From Patescibacteria group bacterium (GTDB taxonomy: Bacteria > Patescibacteriota > Patescibacteriia > Magasanikbacterales > GWA2-37-8), in assembly GCA_004321885.1 (NCBI GenBank), contig SCQK01000013.1:32001-96000 (forward strand): DNA of 64,000 nucleotides. The letters run 5' to 3'. Numbering within the stretch: the stretch's first letter is position 1; each line of letters begins with the position of its first letter. Positions 26,426 to 56,379 of the stretch are shown in pieces. The notes under the pieces are model-generated. The model was not told the DNA's origin. It did not search any database and saw only the letters and a list, made by a program, of their open reading frames with translations. Made by a program: the position numbers and the translations under genes.

Positions 26426-27352
26426 ATGACTATTAGCACAATATTTTTTGGAACACATAATTTTGCGGCGAAAATTTTGGCAGAGCTTATCAAAAACGGC
26501 TCTTTTGACATTACACTGGCAGTCACCCAGCCGGACAGACCGGCGGGAAGAAAACAAGACCTGGAAATTCCGGCCGTGAAACTTTTAGCCGAAAAAAACA
26601 ATATTCCGGTCGCCCAACCGGCCGGTTTGTCATTGCGAGGAGTAATCCCTTTTCCTGATTTCTATGACCTGAACATCCTCTGCCAATACGGAAACATAAT
26701 CACCAAAGAAATTTTAGACAAATCAAAATACGGTTCAATCAATGTCCACCCTTCGCTATTGCCAAGATACCGCGGGGCCTCACCCATCCAATCCGCGCTC
26801 GTAAATGGCGAAACCGAAACCGGCGTTTCCATAATTTTGATGGATGAGGAGCTTGACCATGGCCCGATTTTGGCGCAAAAAAAAATGAACATTGGCGATG
26901 ATGATAATTTTGTTTCTTTGAGCGCGAAATTGTCGTATCTATCCGCCCCTCTTTTGGTAAATACGGCCCTTGATTTTGTAAACGGAAAAATTACTCCCGG
27001 GCCACAAAACCACGACCAAGCGACTTTTTGCAAACAACTCTCGCGCGAGGATGGTAAAATTGATTTTAATAAATCCGCCAAAGAAATTTACAATCAGTGG
27101 CGCGGCCTCGCGCCGTGGCCCGGGGTTTGGGCAAGCTGGGAAAACAAACGTCTCAAATTTATTAATATCAGCCCCCTTCCCCTTTATAAGGGGGATGTGG
27201 GGAGGGGGTATGTAAGGGGGCACAAACTCATCATCGCCTGCGCCCAAGGCGCTATTGAAATTTTAGAACTCCAACTTGAAGGAAAAAAGCCCATGGTCGC
27301 GGCCGCGTTTATAAACGGCTATGGCAAAATAAACGGCGCTATTTTACGCTAA
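26426..27352 (+). CDS. fmt: Methionyl-tRNA formyltransferase. Carries an in-frame palindromic insertion at 27169-27220.
   Basis: Formyltransferase N-domain (SINVHPSLLPRYRGASPIQ). The insertion encodes SPLPLYKGDVGRGYVRG. Confidence 0.9.
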   Translation: MTISTIFFGTHNFAAKILAELIKNGSFDITLAVTQPDRPAGRKQDLEIPAVKLLAEKNNIPVAQPAGLSLRGVIPFPDFYDLNILCQYGNIITKEILDKSKYGSINVHPSLLPRYRGASPIQSALVNGETETGVSIILMDEELDHGPILAQKKMNIGDDDNFVSLSAKLSYLSAPLLVNTALDFVNGKITPGPQNHDQATFCKQLSREDGKIDFNKSAKEIYNQWRGLAPWPGVWASWENKRLKFINISPLPLYKGDVGRGYVRGHKLIIACAQGAIEILELQLEGKKPMVAAAFINGYGKINGAILR

Positions 27353-27353
27353 T

Positions 27354-28769
27354 ATGCAGTCCAAAAAACTTTTTCTTGTTTTTTTAGGGCTCTACGCGCT
27401 CCTGCGCGTCTTTTCCTATTTCTTCAGCCCTGAAACCCCGCTTTACTCGGCCAATCCGGTTAATACTTTGGCCGCCGCGCTGGTTCTTTTCACGGCGATT
27501 TATTTTCTGCTCAAAAAAGACCAGCGCGGCTGGCTGATTGTGGCCGGTGAGCTAATTCTCGGCGGCGGTGGAAATTACCTGGCTGTCGGGCCATTATCCC
27601 TACGGACGTCGCTTCTTTTTGCTTCACTGCTAATTTACTTCGCTCAACTTAAAAGGGGAGGGGCAGGCCACCACACCAAAGATTTTGGTGTGGTGGCAGG
27701 GGGTGGGGTTTGGGCAATATTTTTACTGATTGTAGTCGCCATCATCGCGGCCGGCCGCGGCCTATATCTGGGCCACGCTACTCGCCAAATTTTTTCCGAC
27801 ACGCTTCCCTATTTTTTCCTGCTTTATTATTTTCCGCTTCGCGATTTAATTAAATCTGACAATTTCAAGTCCGTCTGTAAGCAAATGCTCTTCGCGGCTA
27901 TTGTTGGCAACGCGCTTTTTATGCTTCTTACCTATGCCGGCTTTTCCAGCGGCCTGTTCGCTTTGCAGGATGAGTATTACCATTGGTTCCGCGATGTGGC
28001 TCTGGGTAAAATTACCGACATCGGCTTTAATTCCTTTCGCATAATTTTAGACGAACATTTATTGCTCGTGCCGCTGCTGCTGGCGTTTCTTTCGTCTGTC
28101 ATTGCGACCCCCTCATCAAGTGTGGGGCTAAAGGCTGCCACGCTCGCAATGACATTCGTCCTCTCTATTAATATTACCCGCATTTACATTCTGGCGTTCG
28201 TTGTCGGTCTGCTGTTCTTATTTTCAAAAACAAACTGGAGGCGCTGGCTGGCAATTTCATCGGCTTCGCTGGTTTTATTTTTTATCTTTTTCACCTCGCT
28301 TCATCTTATTTCCAGCCGCGGCCAAAATTTGGGCTGGGAATATTTTGGCCTGCGCCTGCAAAGCGTAATGGCGCCGCAAATAGAAGAAAGTTCACTTTCG
28401 CGCGTATTGCTTTTGCCCAAAATTTGGGAAAAAATAAAAGCCCATCCCCTCTTGGGTAATGGACTGGGCGACACGGTCACTGTTTACAGCCCGGCGCTCA
28501 AACAAACCATTACCACTCCGCACTTTGATTGGGGCTATCTGGAAATCTGGGCGGAAGTGGGCTTACTCGGTTTGTTTATCTGGATATTATTGCTCACAAA
28601 AATAATTCCCTCCCCTATCAGGGGAGGGACAGAGGGTGGAGTAACGGTCGCGCCACTCGCCTCCCTTCTTGTCATCAATCTCACCTCACCTGCTATTTTC
28701 CACGCTTTCGGCGTTATCTTTCTTACTTTTTACTTCACTCATTATGGCTCAAATCAAAATTCTGATTGA
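27354..28769 (+). CDS. Polytopic membrane protein, O-antigen ligase/polymerase-like (Wzy/WaaL family guess).
   Basis: More than 10 predicted TM helices. Sits beside GT2, GT4 and a flippase. Contains in-frame palindromes at 27667-27697 and 28608-28628. Confidence 0.45.
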   Translation: MQSKKLFLVFLGLYALLRVFSYFFSPETPLYSANPVNTLAAALVLFTAIYFLLKKDQRGWLIVAGELILGGGGNYLAVGPLSLRTSLLFASLLIYFAQLKRGGAGHHTKDFGVVAGGGVWAIFLLIVVAIIAAGRGLYLGHATRQIFSDTLPYFFLLYYFPLRDLIKSDNFKSVCKQMLFAAIVGNALFMLLTYAGFSSGLFALQDEYYHWFRDVALGKITDIGFNSFRIILDEHLLLVPLLLAFLSSVIATPSSSVGLKAATLAMTFVLSINITRIYILAFVVGLLFLFSKTNWRRWLAISSASLVLFFIFFTSLHLISSRGQNLGWEYFGLRLQSVMAPQIEESSLSRVLLLPKIWEKIKAHPLLGNGLGDTVTVYSPALKQTITTPHFDWGYLEIWAEVGLLGLFIWILLLTKIIPSPIRGGTEGGVTVAPLASLLVINLTSPAIFHAFGVIFLTFYFTHYGSNQNSD

Positions 28770-32596: not shown

Positions 32597-32676
32597 AGAA
32601 CCACTAATCTATATTCACTAATCACACTAATTGATGGCCACTTGTTACAATTTTACAGGAATTTGGACAAAAAAAC

Positions 32677-32699
32677 AACCCCGACTAAGTCGGGGTTGT
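32677..32699 (-). terminator. Hairpin terminator downstream of rpsI (AACCCCGACTAAGTCGGGGTT). Its core matches the family-1 palindrome.
   Basis: Perfect 9-bp stem read directly. Confidence 0.5.
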
Positions 32700-34711: not shown

Positions 34712-34772
34712 ACTGTTCAAAATTTTACCCCTCCTCAATCCTCCCCTTAAATAAGGGGGGGATAAGCAGAGT

Positions 34773-35404: not shown

Positions 35405-35438
35405 GTGTCATTCCCCCGACTAAGTCGGGGGAATCCAA
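35405..35438. repeat. Family-1 palindromic repeat, copy B. Intergenic between rpsK and rpsD.
   Basis: GTGTCATTCCCCCGACTAAGTCGGGGGAATCCA. Confidence 0.85.
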
Positions 35439-37349: not shown

Positions 37350-39202
37350 TCTAATATCGCCTTTATCCTCCGCACGCCGGCGCTCACTGCCTCTTCTTTG
37401 ATAATGCGGAATTTTCCCAGCACACCCGTGTGCTCCACGTGCGGTCCGCCGCATATTTCGCGGCTAAAACATTGCGAGTTCTCGTGGGCTTCAACTTTGG
37501 CTTGCGAGTCGCCCACGGAATAGACCTTGACTTTTTGCCCGTAACGTGCTTCAAACAATCCAATGGCCCCCAATTTTTTGGCCTGTTCCACGCTCATTTC
37601 TTCAAAAACCACCGTATAATCGCGCTTTATGGCATAGTTGACAAGTTCTTCAATTTGTGCTTTCTGATTTTCAGTCAGCTTCTCGGGATGGCTAAAATCA
37701 AAGCGCAAACGCTCGGCCGTAATATTGCTGCCGCGCTGTGTCACATGCTCGCCCAACACCTTGCGCAGGGCGGCGTGGAGCAAATGCGTGGCCGTGTGGT
37801 ATTTTATGGACATCTCGCCGGTATCAGCCAGCCCGCCCTTGAATTTTTGCTCGGCGCCGGCCCGAGAAAGCTCCTGATGCTTTTTCATTTCCTCGTTAAA
37901 TCCTTTGATATCAACACTTAATCCTTTTTCCTCCGCCAATTCTATCGTCAGTTCAATCGGGAAGCCATAACTTTGATACAGGTCAAAAGCATCTTTCGCG
38001 GAAATTATTTTTCCGCCGTCAGTCACATTGTCATTCCCCCGACTAAGTACGGGGGAATCCAGTAACTCCTCAAATTTCGCCATTCCTCGTTCAATCGTAT
38101 TCCTAAATTTACTCTCCTCTTTTGCCATTTCGTTTATCACAAACTCGCGGTTGCGTTCCACTTCCGGATAAACATCGCTAAAAATTTTGATTGTTTCCTC
38201 GGCCATGGCCGAGGAAAAATTTTCTTTTATTCCCAGCAGTCGTCCGTGGCGCACGGCGCGGCGAATCAAACGTCTCACCACATACCCCTGGTCCACGTTG
38301 CTTGGCGCTATCCCCTTGTCATCGCCCATGATCATGGTGGCGGTACGCAAATGGTCGGCGATAACGCGCATTGATTTGGTGACTTCCGCGTTTTCCACGT
38401 ATTCGCGCCCGGAAATCTCTTCAATTTTTTGTATCAAAGGCCAAAAAGTGTCCACCTGAAAAACATCGGCAAAGCCGTTTAAGGCGACCAGCGTGCGCTC
38501 CAGACCCATGCCAGTGTCCACGTTCTTTTGTTTGAGGGGCGCGTAACTACCATCAACCAGTTTATTGTACTCCATGAAAACGTCGTTCCAAATTTCCAGC
38601 CAATTGTCTTCGTCGTTTTCCGGGTTGCTCTTTTTGGGTGGAAGCTCAGACTCCCCCATCCAATAAAACATCTCCGTGTCCGGACCGCACGGCCCGGTGG
38701 CTCCGGCCGGCCCCCACCAATTATTTTCTTTCGGTAAAAAACAAATTTTGTGCTCTGGCACGCCCGCTTCTTTCCAAATTTCGGCCGATTCTTCGTCGCG
38801 CTCGGCTGTTTTGCCTCCCTTAAACACGGACACGGCCAATTTCTTCGGGTCCAGCCCCAGCCATTTTTGGTCCGTTAAAAATTCCCAACTCCACTGTATC
38901 GCTTCCTTTTTAAAATAGTCACCCAGCGACCAGTTGCCGAGCATTTCAAAAAAAGTATCGTGGCGGTTGTCCCCCACTTCGTCAATATCCTGCAAGCGCG
39001 CGCATTTTTGCGCGCTGGCCAAACGCTTGCCCTCGGGATGTTTTTCGCCCAGTAAATACGGCACCAGCGGGTGCATGCCGGCGGTGGTAAACAAAACCGT
39101 CGGATCGTTTTCCGGAACGAGCGAGGCCGACAAAATCACCTTGTGTCCTTTACTGACAAAAAAATCCAAATATTTCTGCCGCAGTTGTTTTGATATGAGC
39201 AT
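37346..39202 (-). CDS. alaS: Alanyl-tRNA synthetase, short form (618 aa) lacking the C-terminal C-Ala domain. A family-1 repeat sits in-frame.
   Basis: N-terminal catalytic core (FTTAGMHPLVPY, GNWSLGDYFK) and editing-domain HxxxH (HTATHLLHAAL). The repeat encodes DSPVLSRGNDN. Confidence 0.9.
   Translation of the reverse strand: MLISKQLRQKYLDFFVSKGHKVILSASLVPENDPTVLFTTAGMHPLVPYLLGEKHPEGKRLASAQKCARLQDIDEVGDNRHDTFFEMLGNWSLGDYFKKEAIQWSWEFLTDQKWLGLDPKKLAVSVFKGGKTAERDEESAEIWKEAGVPEHKICFLPKENNWWGPAGATGPCGPDTEMFYWMGESELPPKKSNPENDEDNWLEIWNDVFMEYNKLVDGSYAPLKQKNVDTGMGLERTLVALNGFADVFQVDTFWPLIQKIEEISGREYVENAEVTKSMRVIADHLRTATMIMGDDKGIAPSNVDQGYVVRRLIRRAVRHGRLLGIKENFSSAMAEETIKIFSDVYPEVERNREFVINEMAKEESKFRNTIERGMAKFEELLDSPVLSRGNDNVTDGGKIISAKDAFDLYQSYGFPIELTIELAEEKGLSVDIKGFNEEMKKHQELSRAGAEQKFKGGLADTGEMSIKYHTATHLLHAALRKVLGEHVTQRGSNITAERLRFDFSHPEKLTENQKAQIEELVNYAIKRDYTVVFEEMSVEQAKKLGAIGLFEARYGQKVKVYSVGDSQAKVEAHENSQCFSREICGGPHVEHTGVLGKFRIIKEEAVSAGVRRIKAILE
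38028..38063. repeat. Family-1 palindromic repeat, copy C, in-frame inside alaS.
   Basis: TTGTCATTCCCCCGACTAAGTACGGGGGAATCCAG. Confidence 0.85.
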
Positions 39203-41459: not shown

Positions 41460-41462
41460 AAT

Positions 41463-41908: not shown

Positions 41909-42229
41909 TTAATCAATTTTTCTCACAATTCCCTTCTCCGCGTCCACCTCCACCATATCGCCATTTTTAATCTTCCACAAAATTTCTTCCGAAAGACCGA
42001 CAATCGCCGGTTTGTTATTTTCGCGCGCCACAATAGCCGCGTGAGAAGTTACCCCGCCATGCACTGCCAAAATCGCCTTCACTTTTTTAGCCAGCGCCGC
42101 GTTTGGTTTGACTTGATTCAATAACACAATATTCTCTTCCGTGCAATGAGCAAATTGGTCAGTATGATTAATAATACAAACCAGCCCGCTCGCCTTGCCG
42201 GGACAAGCAGAAATTCCTTTGAATTGCAT
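41909..42229 (-). CDS. Stand-alone PEP-utilizing-enzyme mobile (phosphohistidine swivel) domain protein.
   Basis: ACPGKASGLVCII...HGGVTSHAAIVARENNKPAIVG...GDMVEVDAEKGIVRKID; 106 aa. Confidence 0.8.
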   Translation of the reverse strand: MQFKGISACPGKASGLVCIINHTDQFAHCTEENIVLLNQVKPNAALAKKVKAILAVHGGVTSHAAIVARENNKPAIVGLSEEILWKIKNGDMVEVDAEKGIVRKID

Positions 42230-42492
42230 AAATTATAAATAATGGCTTTGTTCTGCCATTATTTTACTCTTACTCTTGACAAAAGTCAAAAAATGTGCTA
42301 TATTGTTTTGTTGTGGTTTATTGGAAAATTGCGCTTTATTGCGCTATTTTCCGGCTATAACGTGAGTGTGTTGTTTTTTGAAAATTTGAGGTTTCTTTGG
42401 CCAGAAGTTGAATGCGTAATGCGAATATCTTTTGTTCGTAATGCGCAGTCAACTTCCACGCCCCACCGATGGGGCACACCAAGGAGAGGAAG

Positions 42493-43140: not shown

Positions 43141-43261
43141 CCCCCCATCTCGCCCGCGTTCCGCGGGCAACTCCAAACACAACTCACTGACACGGCGGTA
43201 CGCATCGCGCGACCGCCCAACTCTCAATGCTTTTCAACGAAAAACATTGAGCGTTACAAAA

Positions 43262-43293
43262 AATCCTTCGCGTTTACGAAGGATTTTTTGTTT
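43262..43293 (+). terminator. Rho-independent terminator after the histidine phosphatase (TCCTTCG-CGTTTA-CGAAGGA plus a T-run).
   Basis: Read directly. Confidence 0.55.
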
Positions 43294-43319
43294 CTCAATT
43301 TTAATACCAGCGCGCTATT

Positions 43320-44828: not shown

Positions 44829-44858
44829 AATTAACTGATAAAAATTTATTCAATTCTT

Positions 44859-46082
44859 TTAAATTTTTCTCACAATCCCTTTCTCCGCGTCCACCTCCAC
44901 CATATCGCCGTCTTTTAAAACCTTAGTCGCGATTTTCGTGCCGATAATACAAGGTATACCTAACTCACGGCTGACGATGGCAGCATGCGCGGTTAACCCT
45001 CCCTCGTCGGTCACGATAGCGGCCGCCTTTTTGACCGCCGTTATCAACGACGGCGTGGTCATGGATGAAACTAAAATATCACCCTTCTGCATCTTGACCT
45101 GATCTTCCCGCGTGATAACAATTTTGACCTTGCCGCGCACCTTTCCCTTGGATGCCACGAAGCCAATAATTTTATCCACCACCGCTGTTTTGTCTTCTTC
45201 AAAATAAAGCTTAAAATAATTCTGCGCCTTTTCGCCGCTTAAAATTTTTAATTTTCTCCGGCTGATCAGCAATATATAAAATTGTTGGCGGCGTTTCATT
45301 TCGCTTTCGGGCATTTTCTTGCCACCCAAATAATCGCGCAAGCTGACCGGATCGTACCAATCCAATTCAGCCAATTCTTTTTCGTTGTTGATGACCTTTC
45401 GCAAATGATCTAATAGCTGATCGTAAAGATAAGACGACACTCTTTCCCCCATTTCGTAAAAGTAAGTGAACCATGATAAAATTTCCGCAAGCTCTTTTTC
45501 TTTGGCGGTTAATTTTAGCCGTCGTGCAAGATCCTCTCTTTTTCTAATCAATCGCGGACTAGAACAATGCAATTGGTTTAATAGCCCGACAACCGCTTTC
45601 GGCACTGATAAAGTTGATAAGACATCGTCCAGCTCGCGCGCCGATACTTTCGCCGCCAGTAATTTTTTCAGCCGCTGTGCAACAGACTGCTCACCCCAGT
45701 AGCTATAGACAATAGCGCCACGCCCATAAGCGTGATATTTCATGAACAAACTGATGTAACTCCTCAAATCTTTGCGGGTCAAATTTTTATTCTCGTACTT
45801 TCTGCCCCAGTTATAACCTTGGATTAGCAACTTAACTATAATGTCACCCAAACGAGAAATATTTTTCCCTTTAAATTCTCGCAGAATAATTTTCTGCTGT
45901 CTTTTTTTGTCCGCGGGGTCAAAGTATAACGAGGTAACTCTGCCGCGGCCGACAATCGGACTTCTGGCTATTTTCGCCCGCCCAAATTTACCAATGCTCT
46001 GCGCATAAGCAATGGTGCGAAATCCGCGATCAAGCAAAGTATTTTCACGTGTTAATTGTTTGACGTATTTGACTTTGGACAT
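44859..46082 (-). CDS. Unknown N-domain plus C-terminal PEP-utilizers swivel domain (paralog 2).
   Basis: C-terminus: KGKVRGKVKIV...DEGGLTAHAAIVSRELGIPCIIG...GDMVEVDAEKGIVRKI. Confidence 0.7.
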   Translation of the reverse strand: MSKVKYVKQLTRENTLLDRGFRTIAYAQSIGKFGRAKIARSPIVGRGRVTSLYFDPADKKRQQKIILREFKGKNISRLGDIIVKLLIQGYNWGRKYENKNLTRKDLRSYISLFMKYHAYGRGAIVYSYWGEQSVAQRLKKLLAAKVSARELDDVLSTLSVPKAVVGLLNQLHCSSPRLIRKREDLARRLKLTAKEKELAEILSWFTYFYEMGERVSSYLYDQLLDHLRKVINNEKELAELDWYDPVSLRDYLGGKKMPESEMKRRQQFYILLISRRKLKILSGEKAQNYFKLYFEEDKTAVVDKIIGFVASKGKVRGKVKIVITREDQVKMQKGDILVSSMTTPSLITAVKKAAAIVTDEGGLTAHAAIVSRELGIPCIIGTKIATKVLKDGDMVEVDAEKGIVRKI

Positions 46083-46239
46083 AAATTAAAGCTTCCCCAT
46101 AACCCCCTTTAATATAGAACCCCGAAATTTGACAAATAACGTGCACATGTTATACTGATTATGGAATTGATACCGCTTCAAATAGTCCCGTTTATCGGGG
46201 CGTCCCGCAAGGGTAAGGAGCGGTATTTTTGTTTTACTC

Positions 46240-46869
46240 CTATTTCGGCCATCTTTGCACCCAAATCTCTTTGTCTGCCACGTATTTATAATAATTCGTC
46301 CAATCCTTTTTATTTTGAACTTTTCTGCTGACAACGCCGGTGATGTAATCAGCTACCTGCAGCAAATTATTTGATTTTGAACGCTGTTGTTTTAATTTTT
46401 TTATAACTTTCTTCCCGTTCGTATTTAACCGAACGCGCAAATATTTGGCAAGACGGCTGCGAAAATCCGGCGAACCTGACTTATCAAGTATTACTGTGGC
46501 GTTATTCAAATGCGGAAGCGCGTTGTTAAAAACCATCTGGCAGGCGTATTTGTAAAACGATTCTTTGGTGATAAAACCTGGCCCCCACAATTTATTTGGG
46601 TCTTTGTCTATCACGACTGCGAAGTATATAAAGCGATACGGCTGGATGGCCGATAAAAATCTTTCTTTTATCTTATCCGAATTAAAAGAAAAATGAAATT
46701 CAAAATCGGACGGCAAATCAAGCTCTTTTCGCAATAAATTAATCCGTTGGTCGCAAGATAGGGCGTCTTCATTGTCATCAAAAATAACCAAAGAAATTAT
46801 AAAATATCTGCTGGAACCGGATTCTGTTTTACGGCCGGTATCGCCGGCTTCATCTATAAAGACGAGCAT
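46240..46869 (-). CDS. DUF3800-like protein.
   Basis: N-terminal FIDEAGDTG hallmark (an IDESG-type start); 209 aa. Embedded in the paralog operon. Confidence 0.5.
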   Translation of the reverse strand: MLVFIDEAGDTGRKTESGSSRYFIISLVIFDDNEDALSCDQRINLLRKELDLPSDFEFHFSFNSDKIKERFLSAIQPYRFIYFAVVIDKDPNKLWGPGFITKESFYKYACQMVFNNALPHLNNATVILDKSGSPDFRSRLAKYLRVRLNTNGKKVIKKLKQQRSKSNNLLQVADYITGVVSRKVQNKKDWTNYYKYVADKEIWVQRWPK

Positions 46870-46879
46870 AACTGTTAAT

Positions 46880-48361
46880 TCAAATTTTCTTCACAATCCC
46901 CTTTGTCGCATCCACTTCCACCATGTCGCCGTCTCTGAAAACCTTAGTGGCGATTTTCGTGCCAATCACGCAGGGAATACCGAGTTCGCGCGAGACGATA
47001 GCCGCATGGCAGACAATGCCGCCCATATCAGTAACTATCGCCGACGCCTTTTTCATGGCCGCCACGATTTCCGGTATGGTCATTTCCGAAACCAACACAT
47101 TTCCACTTACCATTTTTTTCATATCCTCTATGGTATTTACAATCGTTACTTTCCCTTTGGCCGCGCCCGGAACCGCGGTTTGCCCCCGCAGTTCTTGAAC
47201 TGATAAATCCACTTCTTCCTCACGAGCCATATTCATTTTTGACATTACGTATCTCGCTTCTTCGCCAACAATAAACTTGGATCCATTGGCGTCCACATAT
47301 AGTAAACTATATTTCCAACGTTCATTTAATTCATCCGCGTCGCACTGCCCGCTTCTAATCGCAGAAGGAACTTCTTGTGGCAAAAAATATCGCGCTTGAC
47401 GAATTGAAATAAGCAATCTTTTTGCTACTTCCCGCAGTATTTTATCAAGCGCATAAAATCCTAAAAATTGGTGCTCTTTGCTCCATGCCTTTTGATAAAC
47501 AAGGTCTTTGGTAACGCGAAATAAATGCTTGTGTTTTTCATCAATTTTTAAATTATCAAACCAGGCGTTTTGTTTTTTTTCAGCTTCAAAAAACTGATTT
47601 TTCTGACGCAAAATTTCTTGCTCAATATCGGTCCCAGCTTCTATAATCTCCTGAATATGCTTTACCACATCCTTCTCTGTCCAAGTCGGCCCTTCACAGG
47701 CAAAGGGCAAAAAACAATACTTCCGCGCATGCGCCGCAATTTTTTCCTCCCCAACGGATAATTGAATTTTGCCTTCCACAACTTCCTTCGCCAGCTCATA
47801 AAGTTCCAAATGTTCCTGTGTACCCAAAGCCGGCTTTGTCAGCGTGAGTAAATCAGCCAAAACAAGAACGGCATCTATATCAGGATTAAACTTTTTTAAA
47901 TAGTTCAATAAATATATTCCTAATTGTTCAAACGGAATTTCCAAAAGCCAACTCGGAACACGATATAAGTGTAATTCCGTCTGTAACGGCAACAGTTGTT
48001 CGTAAATTCGCGCGAGTTCTTCGTTGGATAACTTTGATAAATCACTCTCAATAATTTTCCAGGCATAATTTCTAAGCTGCGGTAAAATTTTATCTGATTT
48101 TACATGCATATCATCAATGAGCCGGGGATTTTCCACAATTGCTTCTAAAGTTTTTTTACCGGCCACTATCCATTCATTGCGAATATAGAATAACTTTGTC
48201 GCGCCGTTTTCATACAAAGGAAGGCTGTGTGCCACATCGGCAAGCCCCAGCTTGCTCAATTCGCTTGTCATGGCGCGAAAAGGCGGCTCCAATGTAATGG
48301 GAGGATACTGATACAACTTCTCAATCATTATCCATTCTTTTCTTAACAATTCTTCATTCAT
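46880..48361 (-). CDS. Unknown N-domain plus C-terminal PEP-utilizers swivel domain (paralog 3).
   Basis: C-terminus: AVPGAAKGKVTIV...DMGGIVCHAAIVSRELGIPCVIG...GDMVEVDATKGIVKKI. Confidence 0.7.
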   Translation of the reverse strand: MNEELLRKEWIMIEKLYQYPPITLEPPFRAMTSELSKLGLADVAHSLPLYENGATKLFYIRNEWIVAGKKTLEAIVENPRLIDDMHVKSDKILPQLRNYAWKIIESDLSKLSNEELARIYEQLLPLQTELHLYRVPSWLLEIPFEQLGIYLLNYLKKFNPDIDAVLVLADLLTLTKPALGTQEHLELYELAKEVVEGKIQLSVGEEKIAAHARKYCFLPFACEGPTWTEKDVVKHIQEIIEAGTDIEQEILRQKNQFFEAEKKQNAWFDNLKIDEKHKHLFRVTKDLVYQKAWSKEHQFLGFYALDKILREVAKRLLISIRQARYFLPQEVPSAIRSGQCDADELNERWKYSLLYVDANGSKFIVGEEARYVMSKMNMAREEEVDLSVQELRGQTAVPGAAKGKVTIVNTIEDMKKMVSGNVLVSEMTIPEIVAAMKKASAIVTDMGGIVCHAAIVSRELGIPCVIGTKIATKVFRDGDMVEVDATKGIVKKI

Positions 48362-49836
48362 ATTTTTCTCACAACCCCACTTGTCGCGTCAACCTTCACC
48401 ATATCGCCGTCTTTGAGTACGGAAGTGATTTTTTTCACGCCCACCACGCAGGGAATTTTAAATTCGCGCGCCACAATGGCCGCATGGCAAGTGATGCCGC
48501 CGTCCTCCGTCACGATAGCCGAGGCGCGTTTCATAGCCGGCAACATCGCCGGATAAGTCGTGAGCGCCAACATAATATCTCCTTTTTCCACCTTATCCGC
48601 GTCTGTTAACGATAGAACAACTTTTACTTTGCCTGAAACAAAACCCGGATACGCGGTGGCGCCCTTAAATCCGTCTTCAACATTTAATTTTATTTCTTCA
48701 ATATCCAAGCCGGCTATAATCGCGTCGGCCTCTTTGCCGTAATAATACTTTGTTCCGCTTTCAGTCGCTTCAATCACGCAATGCTTAATTCTCTCATTTA
48801 TTAAATCAATGTCCAATTTGTCACGCAATAGAGCGTTTTCCATTTCGTCCGTCAAAAAATGATTCGCTTGTTTATGCGATATATTCAATCGCTTGGCAAT
48901 TTCTTTGGTGAGCATGTCCAAAACATAGTGCCCATGCCAAATACAATATTTTCTGAGATCCTTAAGCCAAATAATCTCGCGGGCGATGGCGAACAATCGC
49001 GCGAGCTGCGGGGGCAAGTTGATTTCGGAAATTACTTTATTTTGTTCCGCGATGAGTTTCTCGTAGCGTTCTTTTTCTTCTTTGAGCATTTGGTCCGGGT
49101 CAGTTACGCGAGGCAGGGCTTCCTTAACCTGCTCTTCATAATATTTCAAATCATAAGCCGGCCCGATATAGCCGTATGGCGTCCAGCGCCATTTTTGCCA
49201 ATGCTTTGTTATTAATTCTTTGTACTGGATTCCCGCTTTCGCGGGAATGACAACGGCCTTAAGCAACTCCAAAAAATCCAATTGCTCCAACTGGACAAAA
49301 TTCTGTTTAGCCGGAGTGGTAAGCAGAACAAAATATTCTATTGTTTTTACCGGATCATCTATGCCTAAACTTTTTAAATGTTCTCCTAATTTTTGCTTTA
49401 AATACTCCGAAAAAATCATGCCGTCGCTGTCCACAAACCAAGTGGTGGCGATTGATGGAAGATGACCTTGCTCGGTAAGCCATAAAAGCGTTTTGTAGTA
49501 ATCAAAAAGCTCGGCATTGTTTAGCGCGCCAAAATCTTTTCCCACCAAACTTTGAGCGTAATTAAAATAATCCCAATTTAATTTTTCGGTTCGCGCATGC
49601 AATTCCTCTGCCCACTGCGGCTCGGTAATAATTTTTTCCGCAATCCATTTCACCGTCGTTTCTATTACTTCAACCGGCACATACGCCGTATCCCTGTCGT
49701 TTCTATAATCTTGATACCAAACAGTAAATAATTGTTTGCCATTCTTTTTTGGAATATGCGCAAAAATCCCTTGGGGGTAATAGCCCAGCATGTTAAAATT
49801 CACGTCGCGGATATCAAAATTTATTCGCCATTTCAT
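48358..49836 (-). CDS. Unknown N-domain plus C-terminal PEP-utilizers swivel domain (paralog 4).
   Basis: C-terminus: AYPGFVSGKVKVV...EDGGITCHAAIVAREFKIPCVVG...GDMVKVDATSGVVRKI. Confidence 0.7.
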   Translation of the reverse strand: MKWRINFDIRDVNFNMLGYYPQGIFAHIPKKNGKQLFTVWYQDYRNDRDTAYVPVEVIETTVKWIAEKIITEPQWAEELHARTEKLNWDYFNYAQSLVGKDFGALNNAELFDYYKTLLWLTEQGHLPSIATTWFVDSDGMIFSEYLKQKLGEHLKSLGIDDPVKTIEYFVLLTTPAKQNFVQLEQLDFLELLKAVVIPAKAGIQYKELITKHWQKWRWTPYGYIGPAYDLKYYEEQVKEALPRVTDPDQMLKEEKERYEKLIAEQNKVISEINLPPQLARLFAIAREIIWLKDLRKYCIWHGHYVLDMLTKEIAKRLNISHKQANHFLTDEMENALLRDKLDIDLINERIKHCVIEATESGTKYYYGKEADAIIAGLDIEEIKLNVEDGFKGATAYPGFVSGKVKVVLSLTDADKVEKGDIMLALTTYPAMLPAMKRASAIVTEDGGITCHAAIVAREFKIPCVVGVKKITSVLKDGDMVKVDATSGVVRKI

Positions 49837-49838
49837 AT

Positions 49839-50882
49839 TTATCCGAAGTAGTTTTTCACCGCGAATTCAAATTGCTGGACAAATAATTCCTTAAAGTAGC
49901 GCAAACTATTTTGTTCGTAAAATAAAAGCAACGCCTTCTTGTATTCGGCGCTATCAACGCTTCTAAACGACAAAGGACACCAGTCATGCGCCAAGAGAAT
50001 CGCATTGCCCAAAATTCTGCCTGTTCTTTTATTTCCATCCACGAACGGCTGAATATATGAAATCATCGCCGCCGCGATTATGGCCTTGATTATCGGTTGC
50101 TCCTCTGTATTTACCGCGGAAATCATTTTTTCCATCGCTTCTTTTATTTGGAATTGGTTGTCTATCGGCTTATAATTTGTGCCGACAATACCCACTACAA
50201 TCTTCCTGTAATCATCCGTCACGCCCAAATCTTTTATCAACAAAGAATGCAGGGCGCGTATCAGCGCGGCGGTCGGTTTCTTGAATTTATTTTTATTTTT
50301 CAAAACAAAATCAAGCGCGTATTTATGATTCAATATCATCGTCGCCTCCGCTTTAGTGTGCCCTTTCGCCTCTTTCATTTCCTTTAACAATACTTCCGTA
50401 TCCAATAACGAATAAGTATTACCTTCAAGTTCAGATGATTTCCAGCTCAATTCAATCAAAAGTCGCTCTAATTCTTTTTGAGCGACATCGACCGCCATTT
50501 TGTCTGTTTTTTGTTGATACGCCTTGTTGCGCTTTTCTAAATCTTTTAATTCTTCCTTGTTAAACAAGCCGGATAAATGGTCAAAAATTTCCCAGTCAAA
50601 TCTGTATTTTATTTTTCTTTCATCCACCGGAACCGCAAAATAATCCGCGGCATTAACATAACGCAGAAGCGGAGTTTTAATTTTTGACGAATATGTGACA
50701 CTGCGAGCCTTGCCTCTCTTTTCTATCTGTCCGATCGAGAGTAAAATTTCCAATTCACGCAGGATTGTCGGTTTTGACAATCTGTCAAATTTACCCGCTA
50801 ATCCTTTAATAAGTTCGGCCGCTGTTACCTGTTCATTAGCCTGTACAAATTCCAAAATCGCTTTTTGACGTTTTGTAAGCAT
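49839..50882 (-). CDS. Fic/Doc-family protein with an N-terminal wHTH. The Fic motif has Gln in place of the catalytic His.
   Basis: IQPFVDGNKRTGRILGN matches HPFx(D/E)GN(G/K)R except for H to Q. First gene of the paralog operon. Confidence 0.7.
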   Translation of the reverse strand: MLTKRQKAILEFVQANEQVTAAELIKGLAGKFDRLSKPTILRELEILLSIGQIEKRGKARSVTYSSKIKTPLLRYVNAADYFAVPVDERKIKYRFDWEIFDHLSGLFNKEELKDLEKRNKAYQQKTDKMAVDVAQKELERLLIELSWKSSELEGNTYSLLDTEVLLKEMKEAKGHTKAEATMILNHKYALDFVLKNKNKFKKPTAALIRALHSLLIKDLGVTDDYRKIVVGIVGTNYKPIDNQFQIKEAMEKMISAVNTEEQPIIKAIIAAAMISYIQPFVDGNKRTGRILGNAILLAHDWCPLSFRSVDSAEYKKALLLFYEQNSLRYFKELFVQQFEFAVKNYFG

Positions 50883-51004: not shown

Positions 51005-52186
51005 TCAAGCAATCACTCCCCCGCCCAAACATTCACCTTTAAGATAAAATACCGCGAACTGACCCGGGGTGACGGCGCGTTGGGGGTGAGTGAAAGTAAC
51101 TAAAGGGAGGGAAACAGTGCATCTCTGCAAAGGTTGACGGTGACGCAGGCGCACCTGGCATTTTAGCGGGAAATTGGGTGTGTTTCCACTTATCCAATTT
51201 ACGTCTTTGACCCTTGCTTCCATACTGTACAGCATATCGCTTTTCTCGTCGCCGACAATCAGTTCGTTCTTTTTTATATTCTTACCGACAACAAAGAGAG
51301 GCAACGCGCTGGATTCCCCCGTACTTAGTCGGGGGAATGACAAACTGATACGTTGGCCGATGGTGTAAAACGCCAGGCCATCGTGCTGGCCCACGACTTT
51401 ACCCCTCTCTCGCCACCGCCGCGAGGCGGGGCCCCGCCGTGGCGGTGGCTCTCCCCTTGTAAAGGGGAGAGAGAGCACTATGTTCCCGGGTTTGAATTTT
51501 ATCTTTTTCATCAAAAATTCTTTCATCGGCACTTCGCCGATGAAACAAATGCCCATGCTTTCTTCTTTTTCCGCCGTGGGCAAGCCGAATTTTTTTGCCA
51601 GGGCGCGCACCTGTGGTTTGGCATACTCACCGATGGGAAACAAAACGTGGCGCAGTTGTGCTTGAGATAATTGATTCAAAAAATATGTTTGGTCTTTATT
51701 GAGATCTTTTGACTGCAAGAGGTGCAGAACCCCACCCCCCTTTCGTTCCCCCTTTATTAAGGGAGGAAGAAACGCGTAGTGTCCAGTCGCTAATTTATCA
51801 AACCCTAACGCACGGGCTTTATCCAGCCAGGCGCCAAACTTGATGAATTTATTGCACAAAACATCCGGATTGGGCGTGCGGCCGGCCTTGTACTCGCTAT
51901 ACATGTAATCCAAAACATCGCGCTTGTATTTGCGCGTAAAATCCAGCTTCAAAAGTTTAATGCCCAGTTTGGCGGCCACGCGCAAGGCGTCGCGATAATC
52001 GCCGGTCCAACAGCGCGATCCCACCCCCCCTTCGCCCCCCCCTCTGGCATGAGGGGATATTTTCTCATCATAGTTCACCATGAACGCGCCGCTTACGTTA
52101 TATCCTTGCTTAACCAAAAGAGCGGCGGCAACGGACGAATCCACGCCGCCGGACATGGCGACTAAAATTTTTTGCTTTTTTTTCAT
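51005..52186 (-). CDS. mnmA: tRNA-specific 2-thiouridylase MnmA with several in-frame palindromic insertions.
   Basis: ILVAMSGGVDSSVAA PP-loop. Gly/Pro/Arg-rich insertions at 51310-51345 (family 1), about 51410-51478, about 51740-51770 and about 52020-52060. Confidence 0.85.
   Translation of the reverse strand: MKKKQKILVAMSGGVDSSVAAALLVKQGYNVSGAFMVNYDEKISPHARGGGEGGVGSRCWTGDYRDALRVAAKLGIKLLKLDFTRKYKRDVLDYMYSEYKAGRTPNPDVLCNKFIKFGAWLDKARALGFDKLATGHYAFLPPLIKGERKGGGVLHLLQSKDLNKDQTYFLNQLSQAQLRHVLFPIGEYAKPQVRALAKKFGLPTAEKEESMGICFIGEVPMKEFLMKKIKFKPGNIVLSLPFTRGEPPPRRGPASRRWRERGKVVGQHDGLAFYTIGQRISLSFPRLSTGESSALPLFVVGKNIKKNELIVGDEKSDMLYSMEARVKDVNWISGNTPNFPLKCQVRLRHRQPLQRCTVSLPLVTFTHPQRAVTPGQFAVFYLKGECLGGGVIA
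51310..51345. repeat. Family-1 palindromic repeat, copy D, in-frame inside mnmA (encodes LSFPRLSTGESS).
   Basis: The reverse complement equals copy C. Confidence 0.85.
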
Positions 52187-52253
52187 AACAATATAATACC
52201 ACACAAAACAAAAACTGCCAGCCTTGCGGCCGGCAGTTTCTTGTTTGCAGTAA

Positions 52254-52929: not shown

Positions 52930-52984
52930 GGGTCGGTAGTTCAACTGGTTAGAGCATCCCGACTGAGTCGGGAAAGTTGCGGGT
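52930..52984 (+). pseudogene. tRNA-like 5' fragment, from acceptor to the 5' side of the T-stem. Its body is identical to tRNA-Asp, but the anticodon arm is TCCCG-ACTGAGT-CGGGA.
   Basis: GGGTCGGTAGTTCAACTGGTTAGAGCA is shared with tRNA-Asp. No T-loop or 3' acceptor follows it. The anticodon arm resembles the family-1 palindrome core. Confidence 0.55.
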
Positions 52985-53245
52985 ATGGAGGTAATTTTAT
53001 ATTATATTTACAGTAAAAAACTGAATAAATACTACTTAGGAAAAACCAATGATTTGGAGCGACGTTTTATAGAGCATAATAACGGTGAAGAAATTTTTAC
53101 CAGAACTGGTATTCCATGGAAATTAGTTGGATTTATTAAAGCCAGCGCGAAGATAATTAGTAAATTAGAGTATAAACTAAAAAAAGCAAAAAATCCAAAA
53201 TACGTTTATTGGTATTTCAATCAACACGGAACTGTATTGGAATAA
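52985..53245 (+). CDS. Small GIY-YIG nuclease-domain protein (YhbQ/UPF0213-like).
   Basis: ILYYIYSKK...YYLGKTNDLERRFIEHNNG covers the GIY, YIG, Arg, Glu and Asn positions; 86 aa. Confidence 0.6.
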   Translation: MEVILYYIYSKKLNKYYLGKTNDLERRFIEHNNGEEIFTRTGIPWKLVGFIKASAKIISKLEYKLKKAKNPKYVYWYFNQHGTVLE

Positions 53246-53250: not shown

Positions 53251-53324
53251 GGGTCGGTAGTTCAACTGGTTAGAGCACTGCCCTGTCACGGCAGAAGTTG
53301 CGGGTTCGAGTCCCGTCCGACCCG
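53251..53324 (+). tRNA. tRNA-Asp (anticodon GTC).
   Basis: Hand-folded cloverleaf. Acceptor GGGTCGG/CCGACCC, U8, D-arm, anticodon stem CTGCC/GGCAG with loop CTGTCAC, T-loop TTCGAGT, discriminator G. No encoded CCA. Confidence 0.85.
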
Positions 53325-53346
53325 CTTATTATTCCATCAAAGCAAG

Positions 53347-53405
53347 CTGGTTAGAGCATCCCGACTGAGTCGGGAAAGTTGCGGGTTCGAGTCCCGTCCG
53401 ACCCG
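53347..53405 (+). pseudogene. tRNA-like 3' fragment, from D-loop to the 3' acceptor. It complements the 5' fragment at 52930-52984 and has the same variant anticodon arm.
   Basis: CTGGTTAGAGCATCCCGACTGAGTCGGGAAAGTTGCGGGTTCGAGTCCCGTCCGACCCG. The 5' acceptor strand is missing. Confidence 0.55.
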
Positions 53406-53412
53406 CATAAAA

Positions 53413-56379
53413 CTATTTAACCGAGAACAAAGTAAACCAGCCGAGCATCTCGTCAAAGGTTTTTTTGTCGCCAGAAATTTCTATGATGTTTTTGGATTTT
53501 TTGAAACCTTGGGGATAAAGCTCCATTAATTTTGTGCCGTCGGCGCGAGTATAAATTTTGGCCGGAATATTTTGCCATACAGTTGTGGTAGACGAACCGG
53601 ACAGAGAACCCCCGGTCGCCTCAGGCGACCTCGGGATGACAGCTGAGGCTATTATAAACCGGCTTAACTTATCGGCCGACTGAAAACGCACCACCTTGTC
53701 CCCGTGCTCCACTGTCCAGGCCGCCGGATATTGCAAAGTAAACCGCGCGAAAGAATCCTCGCTGTACAAACTCTTGGGCTGTTCGCTTTCCCGCTTGCGA
53801 ATCTCGGCCGCCAGCTGTTCCAGCTGCGTTTTCAATTTTCCGGTTTCTTCCACGATGGCTTTTTTCACGTTTTCGTTCACAATCTGATTATTGGGCTGGC
53901 AGGCGTAGCCGCCCAGCGTGGAAAGCAAACCCACCACGCCAAAAATCAACAACAATTTCGTAGCCGCCGCTATTTTTATAATGGCGCCTTTTTTGGCCGA
54001 AACTTTTTTCTCCAGCCCGGCCACCCGCTCGCGCGCCTTTAGCACCGTGTCCGGATTAAGCGAAATGCTGTCTATCCCCTCTTGCACCAAAAAATCGGCG
54101 AACTCGGGATAGTCAGAGGGCGCCTGACCGCAGATGCCCACCTTGCGTCCATACTTGTGCGCCGTGGAAATCACCTGTCGTATCAAAGTTTTTACGGCCT
54201 CGTTTCTTTCATCATACACATGGCTCACCAAAGCGCTGTCGCGATCAACACCTAGGGTCAACTGGGTTAAATCGTTGGAGCCGATGCTAAAGCCGTCAAA
54301 AATCTGGCTGTACTCTTTGGCCAAAATCACGTTGGAAGGAATCTCGCACATCACGTAAACTTTCAAGCCAGACCCCTCACTAACTCTCCCCTTATAAAGG
54401 GGGGAGGAGCTTCCTCGCTCCAATCCGAATTCTTTCATCACAGCCAGCACCTTTTTTCCCTCGGCCACGGTGCGGCAAAACGGCACCATCACGATTATAT
54501 TTTTCAGCCCCCACTCTTCACGCGCCATTTTCAATGCCGCGCATTCCAGCCTAAAACCGGGCTTGTAGGCCGGGTCATAATAGCGCGAAGCCCCGCGCCA
54601 GCCCAGCATGGGGTTTTCTTCTTTGGGCTCGTACAAATGCCCGCCGATAAGCGTGGCGTATTCATTGGTTTTGAAATCAGACAAGCGCACAATAACATCG
54701 CGCGGATAATACGCGGCCGCGATAAAAGCGATGCCCTCGGCCAGCTTGTCCACGCAGTACCGGGCCTTGTCTTTGTAGCCGATGGTCAGCTCGTCAATTT
54801 TGGCTTTCAATTCCCGGTCCGCCAATTTTTTGTAATTTACCAAAGCGAGCGGATGGATTTTTATAAAATTGGTGAAAATAAATTCCTCGCGCGCCAGGCC
54901 CACGCCGTCACTGGGGATATGCGACAAAGCAAAAGCGCTGCCCGGGTCGCCCACGTTCATCATTATTTTGGTGCGGGTTTTGGCAATGGCTTTTATTTCC
55001 TGTTTTTCTATTTCAAAAGGCAGGCGCCCTTTGTACACATAACCGGCCTCGCCCTCGGCGCAGGAAACAGTCACTTCCTGCCCGGGCTTCACAATCTGAC
55101 GCGCCCTGGCCGCGCCCACCAGGCACGGCGTGCCCAGCTCGCGGCTGACAATAGCCGCGTGCGAGGTCTTTCCCCCCTGCTCCGTGACAATGGCCGAGGC
55201 AATGCGCATTATCGGCTCCCAATCCGGGTCCGTAATGCGCGTAATCAAAACTTCGCCTGGCCGAAAGCTCTTCATCTGCCTGGGCGAGTTTATTACCCGC
55301 GCTTTGCCCTGACCGATTTTTTGCCCGATGCTGATTCCCTCCACCAAAACTTTGCCTTTTTGTTTCAAATGGTACTGCTCTATTACATTTATATTGTCGC
55401 GCGAACGCACTGTTTCGCTGCGCGCCTGCACGATATAGAGTTTTCCGCTCCGTCCGTCTTTGGCCCACTCTATATCCATGGGCCGCTGGTAATGCTCTTC
55501 TATTTGCATGCCCCACTTGGCCAGTTGCAAGACTTCGTCCGGGGAAACGCAGAACCGGTGCTGGTCCGGCATTTTTACTGTTTCCTGCCTGGTGCCTGTT
55601 TTTCCGTAAACAAGTTTTACTTCTTTGCTCCCCAGCCGCTTGCTGATGATTGATTTCAATCCGCGCCGAACCCCATCTTTGAAAACAAAAAACTGGTCCG
55701 GTATCACCCGGCCCTTGACCACATATTCGCCCAAGCCATAAGCCGCGTTTATAAGCACCACGCCCTTAAAACCCGACTCGGTGTCCAGAGTGAACATCAC
55801 GCCGCTGGCGCCCAAATCCGAACGCACCATTTCCTGCACGCAAACCGAAAGCGCCACAGCCGCGTGGTCAAAGCCCTTGTCCACGCGATAGGAAATGGCG
55901 CGGTCCGTAAAAAGAGAAGCAATACATTTCTGGCAGGCTAAAATAAGTTCATCGGCGCCGACGACATTCAAATAGGTTTCCTGCTGGCCGGCAAAACTGG
56001 CGTCGGGCAAATCCTCGGCCGTGGCCGACGAACGCACGGCCACTGAACTCTTGCCCAATTCTTTATACGCCGCTTTCAATTCATCTGCTATTATTCCTGG
56101 AAACTCGGCGCTTAAAACCATCTGGCGAATCTTGGCGCCGGCCGCGGCCAGCGATTTCACGTTTTTGCCGTCGGTCTTGTTTAGAATTTCTTTTATTTTT
56201 TTATCCAATTTGTCCTCACGCAAAAAAAGCCGGTAGGCGTCGGCAGTAAGAGCGAACCCGTTTGGCACGGCCACTCCATTGGCAGTCAAATTATTATACA
56301 TCTCGCCCAGCGACGCGGTCTTGCCGCCCACGCTGGGAATGTCTTTGATGCCGAGTTCCTTAAACCAGCGGATATACAT
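53413..56379 (-). CDS. ppsA: Phosphoenolpyruvate synthase (pyruvate, water dikinase), full length, with an extra C-terminal extension of about 190 aa that contains a TM helix.
   Basis: ATP-grasp N-domain, swivel (QGGKTSHAAIVSRELGTPC) and PEP-binding TIM barrel (GFSIGSNDLTQL...GICGQAPSDYPEF). A family-2 insertion sits at 54371-54409. The C-terminal tail reads IIKIAAATKLLLIFGVVGLLSTLGGYAC and so on. Confidence 0.9.
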   Translation of the reverse strand: MYIRWFKELGIKDIPSVGGKTASLGEMYNNLTANGVAVPNGFALTADAYRLFLREDKLDKKIKEILNKTDGKNVKSLAAAGAKIRQMVLSAEFPGIIADELKAAYKELGKSSVAVRSSATAEDLPDASFAGQQETYLNVVGADELILACQKCIASLFTDRAISYRVDKGFDHAAVALSVCVQEMVRSDLGASGVMFTLDTESGFKGVVLINAAYGLGEYVVKGRVIPDQFFVFKDGVRRGLKSIISKRLGSKEVKLVYGKTGTRQETVKMPDQHRFCVSPDEVLQLAKWGMQIEEHYQRPMDIEWAKDGRSGKLYIVQARSETVRSRDNINVIEQYHLKQKGKVLVEGISIGQKIGQGKARVINSPRQMKSFRPGEVLITRITDPDWEPIMRIASAIVTEQGGKTSHAAIVSRELGTPCLVGAARARQIVKPGQEVTVSCAEGEAGYVYKGRLPFEIEKQEIKAIAKTRTKIMMNVGDPGSAFALSHIPSDGVGLAREEFIFTNFIKIHPLALVNYKKLADRELKAKIDELTIGYKDKARYCVDKLAEGIAFIAAAYYPRDVIVRLSDFKTNEYATLIGGHLYEPKEENPMLGWRGASRYYDPAYKPGFRLECAALKMAREEWGLKNIIVMVPFCRTVAEGKKVLAVMKEFGLERGSSSPLYKGRVSEGSGLKVYVMCEIPSNVILAKEYSQIFDGFSIGSNDLTQLTLGVDRDSALVSHVYDERNEAVKTLIRQVISTAHKYGRKVGICGQAPSDYPEFADFLVQEGIDSISLNPDTVLKARERVAGLEKKVSAKKGAIIKIAAATKLLLIFGVVGLLSTLGGYACQPNNQIVNENVKKAIVEETGKLKTQLEQLAAEIRKRESEQPKSLYSEDSFARFTLQYPAAWTVEHGDKVVRFQSADKLSRFIIASAVIPRSPEATGGSLSGSSTTTVWQNIPAKIYTRADGTKLMELYPQGFKKSKNIIEISGDKKTFDEMLGWFTLFSVK
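54371..54409. repeat. Family-2 palindromic repeat, in-frame in ppsA (encodes SSPLYKGRVSEGSG).
   Basis: The reverse complement matches 40143-40177. Confidence 0.8.

Follow-up and report, generated by a model that had tools for sequence, protein, structure and literature searches.

Among the short structured repeats described in bacterial genomes, the closest to the element studied here is the G/C-rich intrastrand triplex motif TM_ECO, formerly known as BoxC and as the PIT element (Holder et al. 2015, NAR 43:10126, PMC4666352; earlier work on the class, Hoyne/Maher 2000, is cited there). The ITxF class II motifs defined in that study consist of a pyrimidine-rich arm (Y), a Watson-Crick complementary purine arm (R) and a reverse-Hoogsteen mirror arm (RH), all on one strand. 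E. coli K-12 contains 23 TM_ECO copies of 34-37 nucleotides (nt), with the consensus CCCTCNCCC N3-6 GGGNGAGGG N3 GGGNGAGGG[GTC-]; loop 2 is TTA in type A and CCG in type B, and one mismatch is often found at the N position (PMC4666352). The surveyed hosts were proteobacteria, and G/C-rich triplex motifs were also reported in cyanobacteria (PMC4666352). In the present work, a 36-nt repeat of the same build (family 2) was analysed in a 64,000-nt stretch of the genome of a Patescibacteria group bacterium (GCA_004321885.1, contig SCQK01000013.1, positions 32,001 to 96,000; hereafter the window). The nearest relatives of this bacterium by protein match are annotated as Candidatus Magasanikbacteria. 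The repeat lies in frame in several housekeeping genes, including ppsA, mnmA, fmt and a stand-alone PPDK_N (ATP-grasp) gene. We consider it probable that these units are selfish repeats that form DNA structures and survive in genes as translated loops on the protein surface.

The unit in the PPDK_N gene (copy a) is a perfect 36-nt three-arm unit with arms and loops of 10/3/10/3/10 nt. It was found by scanning the window for Y-R-RH motifs according to the ITxF rules of Holder 2015 (stems of 6-15 nt, at most one mismatch, loops of 1-6 nt). The Y arm CTCTCCCCTT is followed by the loop TAT, the R arm AAGGGGAGAG, the loop TTA and the RH arm GTGAGGGGTA; arm 3 is the mirror image of arm 2, with G opposite G and A or T opposite A, and there are no mismatches in either the Watson-Crick or the mirror pairing. 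As single-stranded DNA, arms 1 and 2 are predicted to form a 10-bp hairpin (-9.8 kcal/mol, z -5.1; ViennaRNA, without triplex modelling), and arm 3 stays free. The ITxF class II definition covers copy a without mismatch, copy b in ppsA with 1+1 mismatches and five further motifs; these seven motifs compare with none in 20 first-order Markov shuffles of the window. The 34-mer TCTCCCCTTTATAAGGGGAGAGTTAGTGAGGGGT occurs exactly at 40143-40176(+) and with one mismatch at 54372-54405(-), and had no match in 100 dinucleotide shuffles. A preliminary description of this DNA had placed an element at 40143-77 and, reverse-complemented, at 54371-409. Both sites are real and correspond to copies a and b; the element is not the simple CCCCTTTATAAGGGG palindrome proposed there, since its apparent tail GTGAGGGGTA mirrors the G-rich stem arm. 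G-quadruplex formation was rejected for the canonical window copies, which have just two G-tracts each. No Rfam family was found for the element in a gathering search of the window and five related loci, nor in an E-value search of 52560-53420.

The window units can be aligned arm for arm with TM_ECO (Table 1 of Holder 2015), with the common arm core CTCNCCCC / GGGGNGAG / GNGAGGGG. Copies a and b, 36 nt long with TTA as loop 2, are within the TM_ECO length range, and a metagenome relative (L121) has CCG as loop 2. The mismatch of copy b falls on the variable N position of the E. coli motif. Both copies fit the relaxed TM_ECO core CTCNCCC..GGGNGAG..GNGAGGG; compared with TM_ECO, however, the window arms lack the outer CC/GG, have gained two T:A positions beside loop 1 and have 8 G/C-rich positions. 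Like TM_ECO, the window units are dispersed and multi-copy, occur in both orientations and occasionally as inverted doublets, show local gain and loss, and have no known associated transposase. The three-arm mirror build therefore assigns them to the already described BoxC/PIT/TM_ECO intrastrand-triplex class, and not to a new family like the Rickettsia palindromic elements (RPEs), as had been suggested. New here are the short-arm variant, the Patescibacteria host, as against the proteobacteria and cyanobacteria of the TM_ECO survey, and, above all, the in-frame coding location: 7 of the 10 window copies lie inside open reading frames (ORFs) with identities supported by Pfam, in frame, whereas the E. 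coli copies are all intergenic. A coding location in frame is described for this class neither in Holder 2015 (PMC4666352) nor in the searchable literature, and no literature on coding palindromes in Patescibacteria or the candidate phyla radiation was found.

The window contains 10 copies in total and with them a dispersed repeat family; seven are in coding sequence (ppsA, PPDK_N, fmt, a Wzy_C-like gene, and three in mnmA) and three are intergenic (Table 1). The doublet between serS and alr and two of the mnmA copies are degenerate or interrupted, and are not among the seven motifs of the strict scan. The diverged fmt copy and the copy in the rpsD-rpoA spacer, both of which had been noticed before, were recovered, the former in frame; the three mnmA copies, the Wzy_C-like copy and the two other intergenic copies are additional to these. 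The fmt copy has the same 16-nt core, TCCCCTTTATAAGGGG, as copy a. The ATG at 34711, the probable start of rpoA, lies 15 nt downstream of the end of the rpsD-rpoA copy (in the mechanical ORF, the first RpoA domain is found only some way in), and the serS-alr doublet takes up most of a 59-nt spacer. The fmt and serS-alr copies are identical base for base in an independent Logan assembly of SRR8426592.

Table 1. Repeat units, host genes and other features of the window (window coordinates; scan, strict Y-R-RH scan).
Feature	Position	Strand	Scan	Description
Copy a	40142..40177	+	motif	in PPDK_N ORF, opposite strand read as PLTNSPLIKGR
Copy b	54371..54406	-	motif	36 nt, one mismatch; in ppsA in element orientation, encodes SSPLYKGRVSEG (+12 residues)
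Copy c	27171..27224	+	motif at 27176-27207 (core, 7-nt arms)	in fmt; diverged, extended, encodes SPLPLYKGDVGRGYVRGH
Wzy_C-like copy	28607..28642	+	motif	36 nt, TCCCTCCCCT-ATC-AGGGGAGGGA-CAG-AGGGTGGAGT, encodes PSPIRGGTEGG
Copy g	51400..51471	-	not among the seven motifs	in mnmA; complete unit CTCTCCCCTT-TAC-AAGGGGAGAG ... CGA-GAGAGGGGTA, split by a nested palindrome
Copy h	51730..51769	-	below threshold	in mnmA; degenerate, encodes LPPLIKGERKGGG
Copy i	52024..52057	-	motif	in mnmA; weak, 7-nt arms, encodes SPHARGGGEGG
rpsD-rpoA spacer copy	34726..34763	-	motif	intergenic, arms/loops 11/4/11/1/11
clpB-typA/bipA copy	17853..17888	+	motif	intergenic between convergent genes, 36 nt, CCCCCTCCTT-TCG-GAGGAGGGGG-CGA-GGGGGTGGTG
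serS-alr doublet	6876..6923	.	not among the seven motifs	palindromic double unit, G-rich arms on both strands
ppsA	53413..56379	-		PPDK_N, PEP-utilizers and PEP-utilizers_C domains (Pfam)
Stand-alone PPDK_N (ATP-grasp) gene	39942..41000	-		also with a family-3 palindrome (40605-40638)
mnmA	51005..52204	-		three triplex-type units, nested GC palindrome, family-1 palindrome
fmt	26426..27352	+		host gene (Pfam)
Wzy_C-like membrane protein gene	27354..28769			host gene
GC palindrome nested in copy g	51413..51448			36 nt
Xer-like recombinase gene	9089..10042			only recombinase found in the window
Family-1 palindromes	910..941, 32675..32699, 35406..35437, 38023..38062, 51309..51348			TGTCATTCCCCCGACTAAGTCGGGGGAATGACA, stem of up to 15 bp
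Family-3 palindromes	40605..40638, 62589..62622, 63039..63072			GTCATCCTGAACTTGTTTCAGGATC
Palindrome in Wzy_C-like gene	27667..27697			GCCACCACACCAAAGATTTTGGTGTGGTGGC, perfect 14-bp stem
tRNA-Asp(GTC)	53251..53325			flanked by two partial tRNA-body copies
Partial tRNA copy, 5' part	52931..52985			
Partial tRNA copy, 3' part	53347..53407			
Small ORF	52985..53245			between 5' tRNA part and tRNA-Asp; GIY-YIG-like by eye
PPDK_N/PEP-utilizers cluster	39942..50882			stand-alone PPDK_N and five paralogs
PpsA C-terminal extension	53413..53990			residues ~797-988, ~190 residues

Translation of the host genes gave the peptides quoted earlier for ppsA (KEFGLERG-SSSPLYKGRVSEGSG-LKVYVMCEIP), the PPDK_N ORF (KAKLPLTNSPLIKGRDSNKW) and fmt (NISPLPLYKGDVGRGYVRGHK). 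The canonical unit is not free of stops in all six frames, as had been thought possible; three are open (SPLYKGRVSEG, LPFIRGELVRG and, in reverse, PLTNSPLIKGR), and the other three are closed by TAA. Exactly these three open frames are used by the three near-canonical coding copies, which read SPLYKGRVSEG, PLTNSPLIKGR and LPFTRGE..RERG. As one DNA is read in three frames and orientations, the repeated entity is the DNA and not the peptide. In mnmA, copy g and its nested palindrome together span 72 nt, or 24 codons, and read SLPFTRGE-PPPRRGPASRRW-RERG. All seven coding copies preserve the frame of the host gene, and no copy splits a gene. Together with the avoidance of the stop-containing frames, this argues for translation of the units, and against their removal from the RNA. 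About 93% of the window is coding. The three intergenic copies among 10, compared with 7.4% of non-coding DNA, represent a mild enrichment (P=0.03), so that genes are not preferred; the units are tolerated there.

The use of three frames also bears on whether the units could have been selected as a SPLxKGR-like peptide loop, or could be chance low-complexity sequence or an assembly artefact. The encoded peptides are all Pro/Gly/Lys-rich, and assemblers mishandle palindromes, as seen where a Logan contig stops at the centre of the palindrome in the Wzy_C-like gene. Such explanations are nevertheless very improbable: three unrelated peptides arise from one DNA, copies are also located outside genes, and the shuffles gave no matches to the 34-mer or to the Y-R-RH scan. 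Moreover, two copies were reproduced by the independent assembly, units of the same kind occur in relatives from other samples, and the low AlphaFold2 confidence at the PPDK_N insert (below), read as disorder, also counts against these explanations.

Comparison with orthologs showed that the inserts in ppsA, PPDK_N and mnmA are not conserved. Relative to PDB 2OLS and 9DAE, the ppsA insert adds exactly 12 residues. The site was scorable in 111 of the 120 closest homologs: the linker is a KDG/KNG of three residues in 109 and a single residue in one, and this protein alone has 15. By TIM-barrel topology, the insert would immediately precede the strand LKVYVMCEIP and lie on the opposite side of the barrel from the active site. 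In the PPDK_N protein the unit occupies a loop of variable length among orthologs; the minimal orthologs are without it, and one ortholog (P0122) has NPPLKKGR in the same loop. The AlphaFold2 model of this protein has a mean pLDDT (predicted local distance difference test) of 81.5. The family-2 insert (residues 276-286), between two strands, has values below 50, which suggests disorder. The other low-confidence parts are residues 109-131, at a family-3 palindrome insert, and residues 144-153 and 240-242, which have no repeat match. In mnmA, the inserts relative to PDB 2HMA amount to about +10 (copy i), +6 (copy h) and about +22 residues (copy g). The MnmA orthologs vary from 337 to 448 residues, and the shortest have no insert; 14 of 25 orthologs have no insert at the position of copy g. 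The same few sites carry differing repeat-like peptides by lineage, and the copy h loop of orthologs contains other units of the same type (NSPLGRGRGGL). The earlier view that the element was inserted in frame in both orientations is borne out for ppsA and PPDK_N, with further copies present and peptides that orthologs lack, the reverse of what would have refuted it. It does not apply to fmt, where the copy is in frame without net insertion, in a variable β-hairpin that is at most about 1 residue longer than in PDB Fmt structures and 18 orthologs.

Several observations are related to the spread of the units. Copies a and b differ at only 1 of 36 positions, although their host domains are not homologous and their orientations are opposite; this near-identity at unrelated sites argues for a recent copy event. 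No direct repeats flank either copy. A filled and an empty site were found in the mnmA genes of two relatives (L119 and L120), which are about 95% identical in DNA and show a net 33-nt difference at the copy g loop. The extra DNA, CCCTTCCT-GCCCG-AGGAGGGG-TTA-GGGGTGGT, is a unit of the same type with a TTA loop; the filled site of L119 lacks a target-site duplication and shows changes in two neighbouring codons. Elsewhere in this pair, within the first 170 alignment columns, the original start codon is lost through a 29-nt insert that contains a hairpin, and an in-frame ATG further upstream lengthens the ORF. Nested insertions were also observed. The 36-nt GC palindrome of copy g lies exactly between the R arm and loop 2, and has no second copy in the window. 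The mnmA gene of another relative (P0005, locus L122) contains two identical 33-nt GC palindromes, CCTGCCCGCAACGCTCTCGCTTGCGAGGCGGGC, both in frame (RPARNALACEAGG), at coding-sequence residues ~150-190 and ~255-295; one is located in loop 2 and the other in loop 1 of two units. Palindromes nested in the unit loops suggest that the process involved works on single strands in their folded state.

These features could also be expected of a conventional non-autonomous element of the REP/REPIN or MITE type, moved by a transposase encoded elsewhere in the genome (for example RAYT or a Y1 enzyme of the IS200/IS605 type); in that case the third arm would serve for recognition or cleavage, and not as a triplex strand. 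IS200/IS605-type Y1 enzymes recognise DNA hairpins and produce no target-site duplication. The hairpin with its asymmetric flank, the lack of target-site duplication, the near-identical copies at unrelated sites in both orientations, the palindromes nested in the single-stranded loops and the single inverted doublet (6876-6923) are all in line with such an element. We nevertheless regard it as unlikely. In the 64 kb no transposase was found and just the Xer-like recombinase, terminal inverted repeats are absent, the unit is present in very distant phyla, and no link of E. coli TM_ECO to transposons, phages or plasmids was found (PMC4666352). In addition, the mirror symmetry and a 2-nt triple co-variation of the arms (see below) would be unexpected for a simple recognition site. 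REP/REPIN elements are extragenic, short, G/C-rich hairpins, sometimes in inverted doublets, and are mobilised by RAYT transposases (PMC3116915). The window units resemble them in the short G/C-rich hairpin, the occasional inverted doublet and the lack of target duplication; they differ in that REPs have no mirror third arm and are extragenic, whereas 7 of 10 window units are coding (PMC3116915). A Pfam search of 61 of 62 selected ORFs and one further ORF in the 64 kb found no Y1_Tnp match that would indicate a RAYT. Unlike MITEs, the units have neither terminal inverted repeats nor target-site duplications (copies a and b; L119 compared with L120).

The distribution of the unit was searched in other genomes using the hairpin alone (CTCYCCCCTTNNNAAGGGGAGAG) as the query, with one genome per species. 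At least 117 loci were found, compared with about 2 estimated by chance. The matches listed include Verrucomicrobia, Dehalococcoidia, Planctomycetes, Binatia, alphaproteobacteria, cyanobacteria, metagenome-assembled genomes labelled Bifidobacteriaceae and one Patescibacteria genome, often with many per genome. Among these listed matches, 91 of 117 continue on one side with GG-N3-5-GG-GTGAGGGGT, which is the same third arm and lies outside the query; the TM_ECO arms are present in 80 of 117 if loop 1 is allowed up to 9 nt and loop 2 3-5 nt. The 2-nt arm extensions, which the query left unconstrained, are CC/GG/GG in 77 of 97 copies among the matches listed, and change jointly to TC/GA/AG in 3. 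This triple co-variation gives weak but direct support to a three-arm constraint. The short-arm variant itself was found at just one further locus in a metagenome scan, which makes the exact variant rare in the metagenomes searched; at this locus (L121) the unit is part of an ATP-grasp-like ORF, which reads it in frame as RPLTGSPLSKGRG. According to Pfam, units from the hairpin search are in frame in the Pro_dh-Aldedh linker of PutA (L112), in two NuoE/NuoF fusions (L011; L009, inside the Complex1_51K domain) and in the N-terminal domain of PrmC in another Patescibacteria genome (L055). These four cross-phylum units indicate that coding occupancy is not peculiar to this genome.

It was also considered whether the units are selected by the host as nucleic-acid structures, with roles in the pausing of replication, transcription or translation, in mRNA stability, or in local recombination and variation. 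TM_ECO sites are associated with local genomic instability (PMC4666352), the G-rich strand is the mRNA sense strand in 6 of 7 coding copies, and intergenic copies are found directly upstream of alr and rpoA. This explanation appears quite improbable, because presence varies among close orthologs at positions that are not conserved, the copies diverge freely, and PIT elements have neither promoter nor terminator activity (PMC4666352). The units also show, if anything, an enrichment between genes, as described above. That the G-rich tail might serve alr or rpoA as a Shine-Dalgarno sequence appears implausible, as the spacing of ~11-24 nt is poor.

Phylogenetic spread, architecture and ortholog comparison together are best explained by selfish repeat DNA, and family 2 would represent a Patescibacteria variant of the G/C-rich intrastrand-triplex repeats. 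The direct observations behind this explanation are the architecture, the over-representation, the absence from orthologs, the frame usage, the filled/empty pair and the predicted disorder of the insert. In single-stranded DNA, arms 1 and 2 would form the 10-bp hairpin, and arm 3 may fold back as a purine-motif triplex, by analogy with the E. coli member. The repeat DNA would be copied to new sites without target-site duplication, and often be lost again. The substrate of copying is probably DNA in a single-stranded or folded state, given that palindromes of other kinds are inserted in the unit loops. Since about 93% of the DNA is coding, most insertions would fall in genes. The survivors would be those that are 12 codons long, use one of the three stop-free frames and reach tolerant surface loops, and they would be translated as short, disordered loops rich in Pro, Gly, Ser, Lys and Arg.

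Several points weigh against this explanation. TM_ECO is reported to be "always located intergenically" and not tied to transposons, phages or plasmids; its single-stranded DNA forms a stable triplex in vitro, but none was detected in vivo (PMC4666352). The strict TM_ECO consensus has no match in the window, for which reason the units are named a short-arm variant of the class and not TM_ECO copies. No transposase or other candidate mobilising enzyme was found in the 64 kb by the Pfam search described above. Just two copies are near-identical and the rest have diverged, so that recent mobility in this genome depends on one pair, and the L119/L120 difference may be read as a gain or as a precise loss. 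The fmt copy brought no gain in length, and therefore replaced sequence rather than adding it; this is not a simple insertion. Finally, for the window units we infer translation, mobility and triplex formation from the DNA. A wider proposal is more tentative, and we would put it at somewhat less than an even chance. The three-arm units might represent a class of mobile DNA of extremely small size, spread throughout the bacteria and able to colonise coding sequences in frame, and might, with other palindromes, be a main source of variable loop insertions in the housekeeping proteins of Patescibacteria. The mutual insertion into loops would then point to an insertion or copy-choice mechanism on folded DNA.

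Other palindromes and repeats were observed in the same region. The family-1 palindromes are found inside alaS and mnmA, in the 5'-terminal parts of the greA and rpsD ORFs, and at one intergenic site; in mnmA the palindrome reads ISLSFPRLSTGESSA, with only about 2 added residues. The family-3 palindromes are in frame in the PPDK_N ORF (GILKQVQDD, with pLDDT below 50 at 109-131) and occur twice in cysS. The Logan contig L001 ends exactly at 27682, the centre of the palindrome in the Wzy_C-like gene. In the two partial tRNA-Asp copies (52931-53407), a family-1-like hairpin, TCCCGACTGAGTCGGGA, takes the place of the anticodon arm, and neither copy was called by ARAGORN or Rfam. The cluster at 39942-50882 contains, besides the stand-alone PPDK_N gene, five paralogs whose last domain is a PEP-utilizers mobile (phosphohistidine) domain; among these genes lie two HepT/MNT toxin-antitoxin pairs and the genes for a DUF3800 and a Fic protein. 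The C-terminal extension of PpsA contains a predicted membrane helix. Most Magasanikbacteria-type PpsA orthologs are of like length (~970-1000 residues); some of ~800-855 residues are shorter, as are the PDB enzymes.

Two other repeat systems can be compared in behaviour. The small dispersed repeats (SDRs) of Nostoc and related cyanobacteria, from the work of Elhai et al. in 2008, are reportedly structured repeats of ~21-27 nt that are apparently mobile and nested and have no encoded enzyme. The window units belong to different sequence families and hosts, and SDRs are not known to have a mirror architecture of three arms. The RPEs are repeats of ~100-150 bp with a conserved encoded peptide (Ogata et al. 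2000, as summarised in PMC10969869). As far as that summary describes them, the likeness is one of behaviour only: repeat DNA lies in frame in unrelated housekeeping genes of a reduced genome, and is presumably translated and tolerated where the protein fold allows. The RPEs belong to another host lineage, and the window units differ from them in the 36-nt length, in the use of three frames with three peptides, and in the three-arm instead of two-arm symmetry.

The function and spread of the BoxC/PIT/TM repeats have been unexplained since the 1990s, and these repeats have been seen as intergenic curiosities of enterobacteria and cyanobacteria. The same architecture in essential genes of a bacterium of the candidate phyla radiation suggests that the repeat behaves as coding selfish DNA, as do the RPEs. 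A route to the mechanism may be offered by the base-by-base comparison of filled with empty sites and of nested insertions. The possible repeat origin of such loops is also a caution for annotators and structure predictors. Repeat-derived loops may help to explain the length variation of orthologous Patescibacteria proteins such as MnmA.

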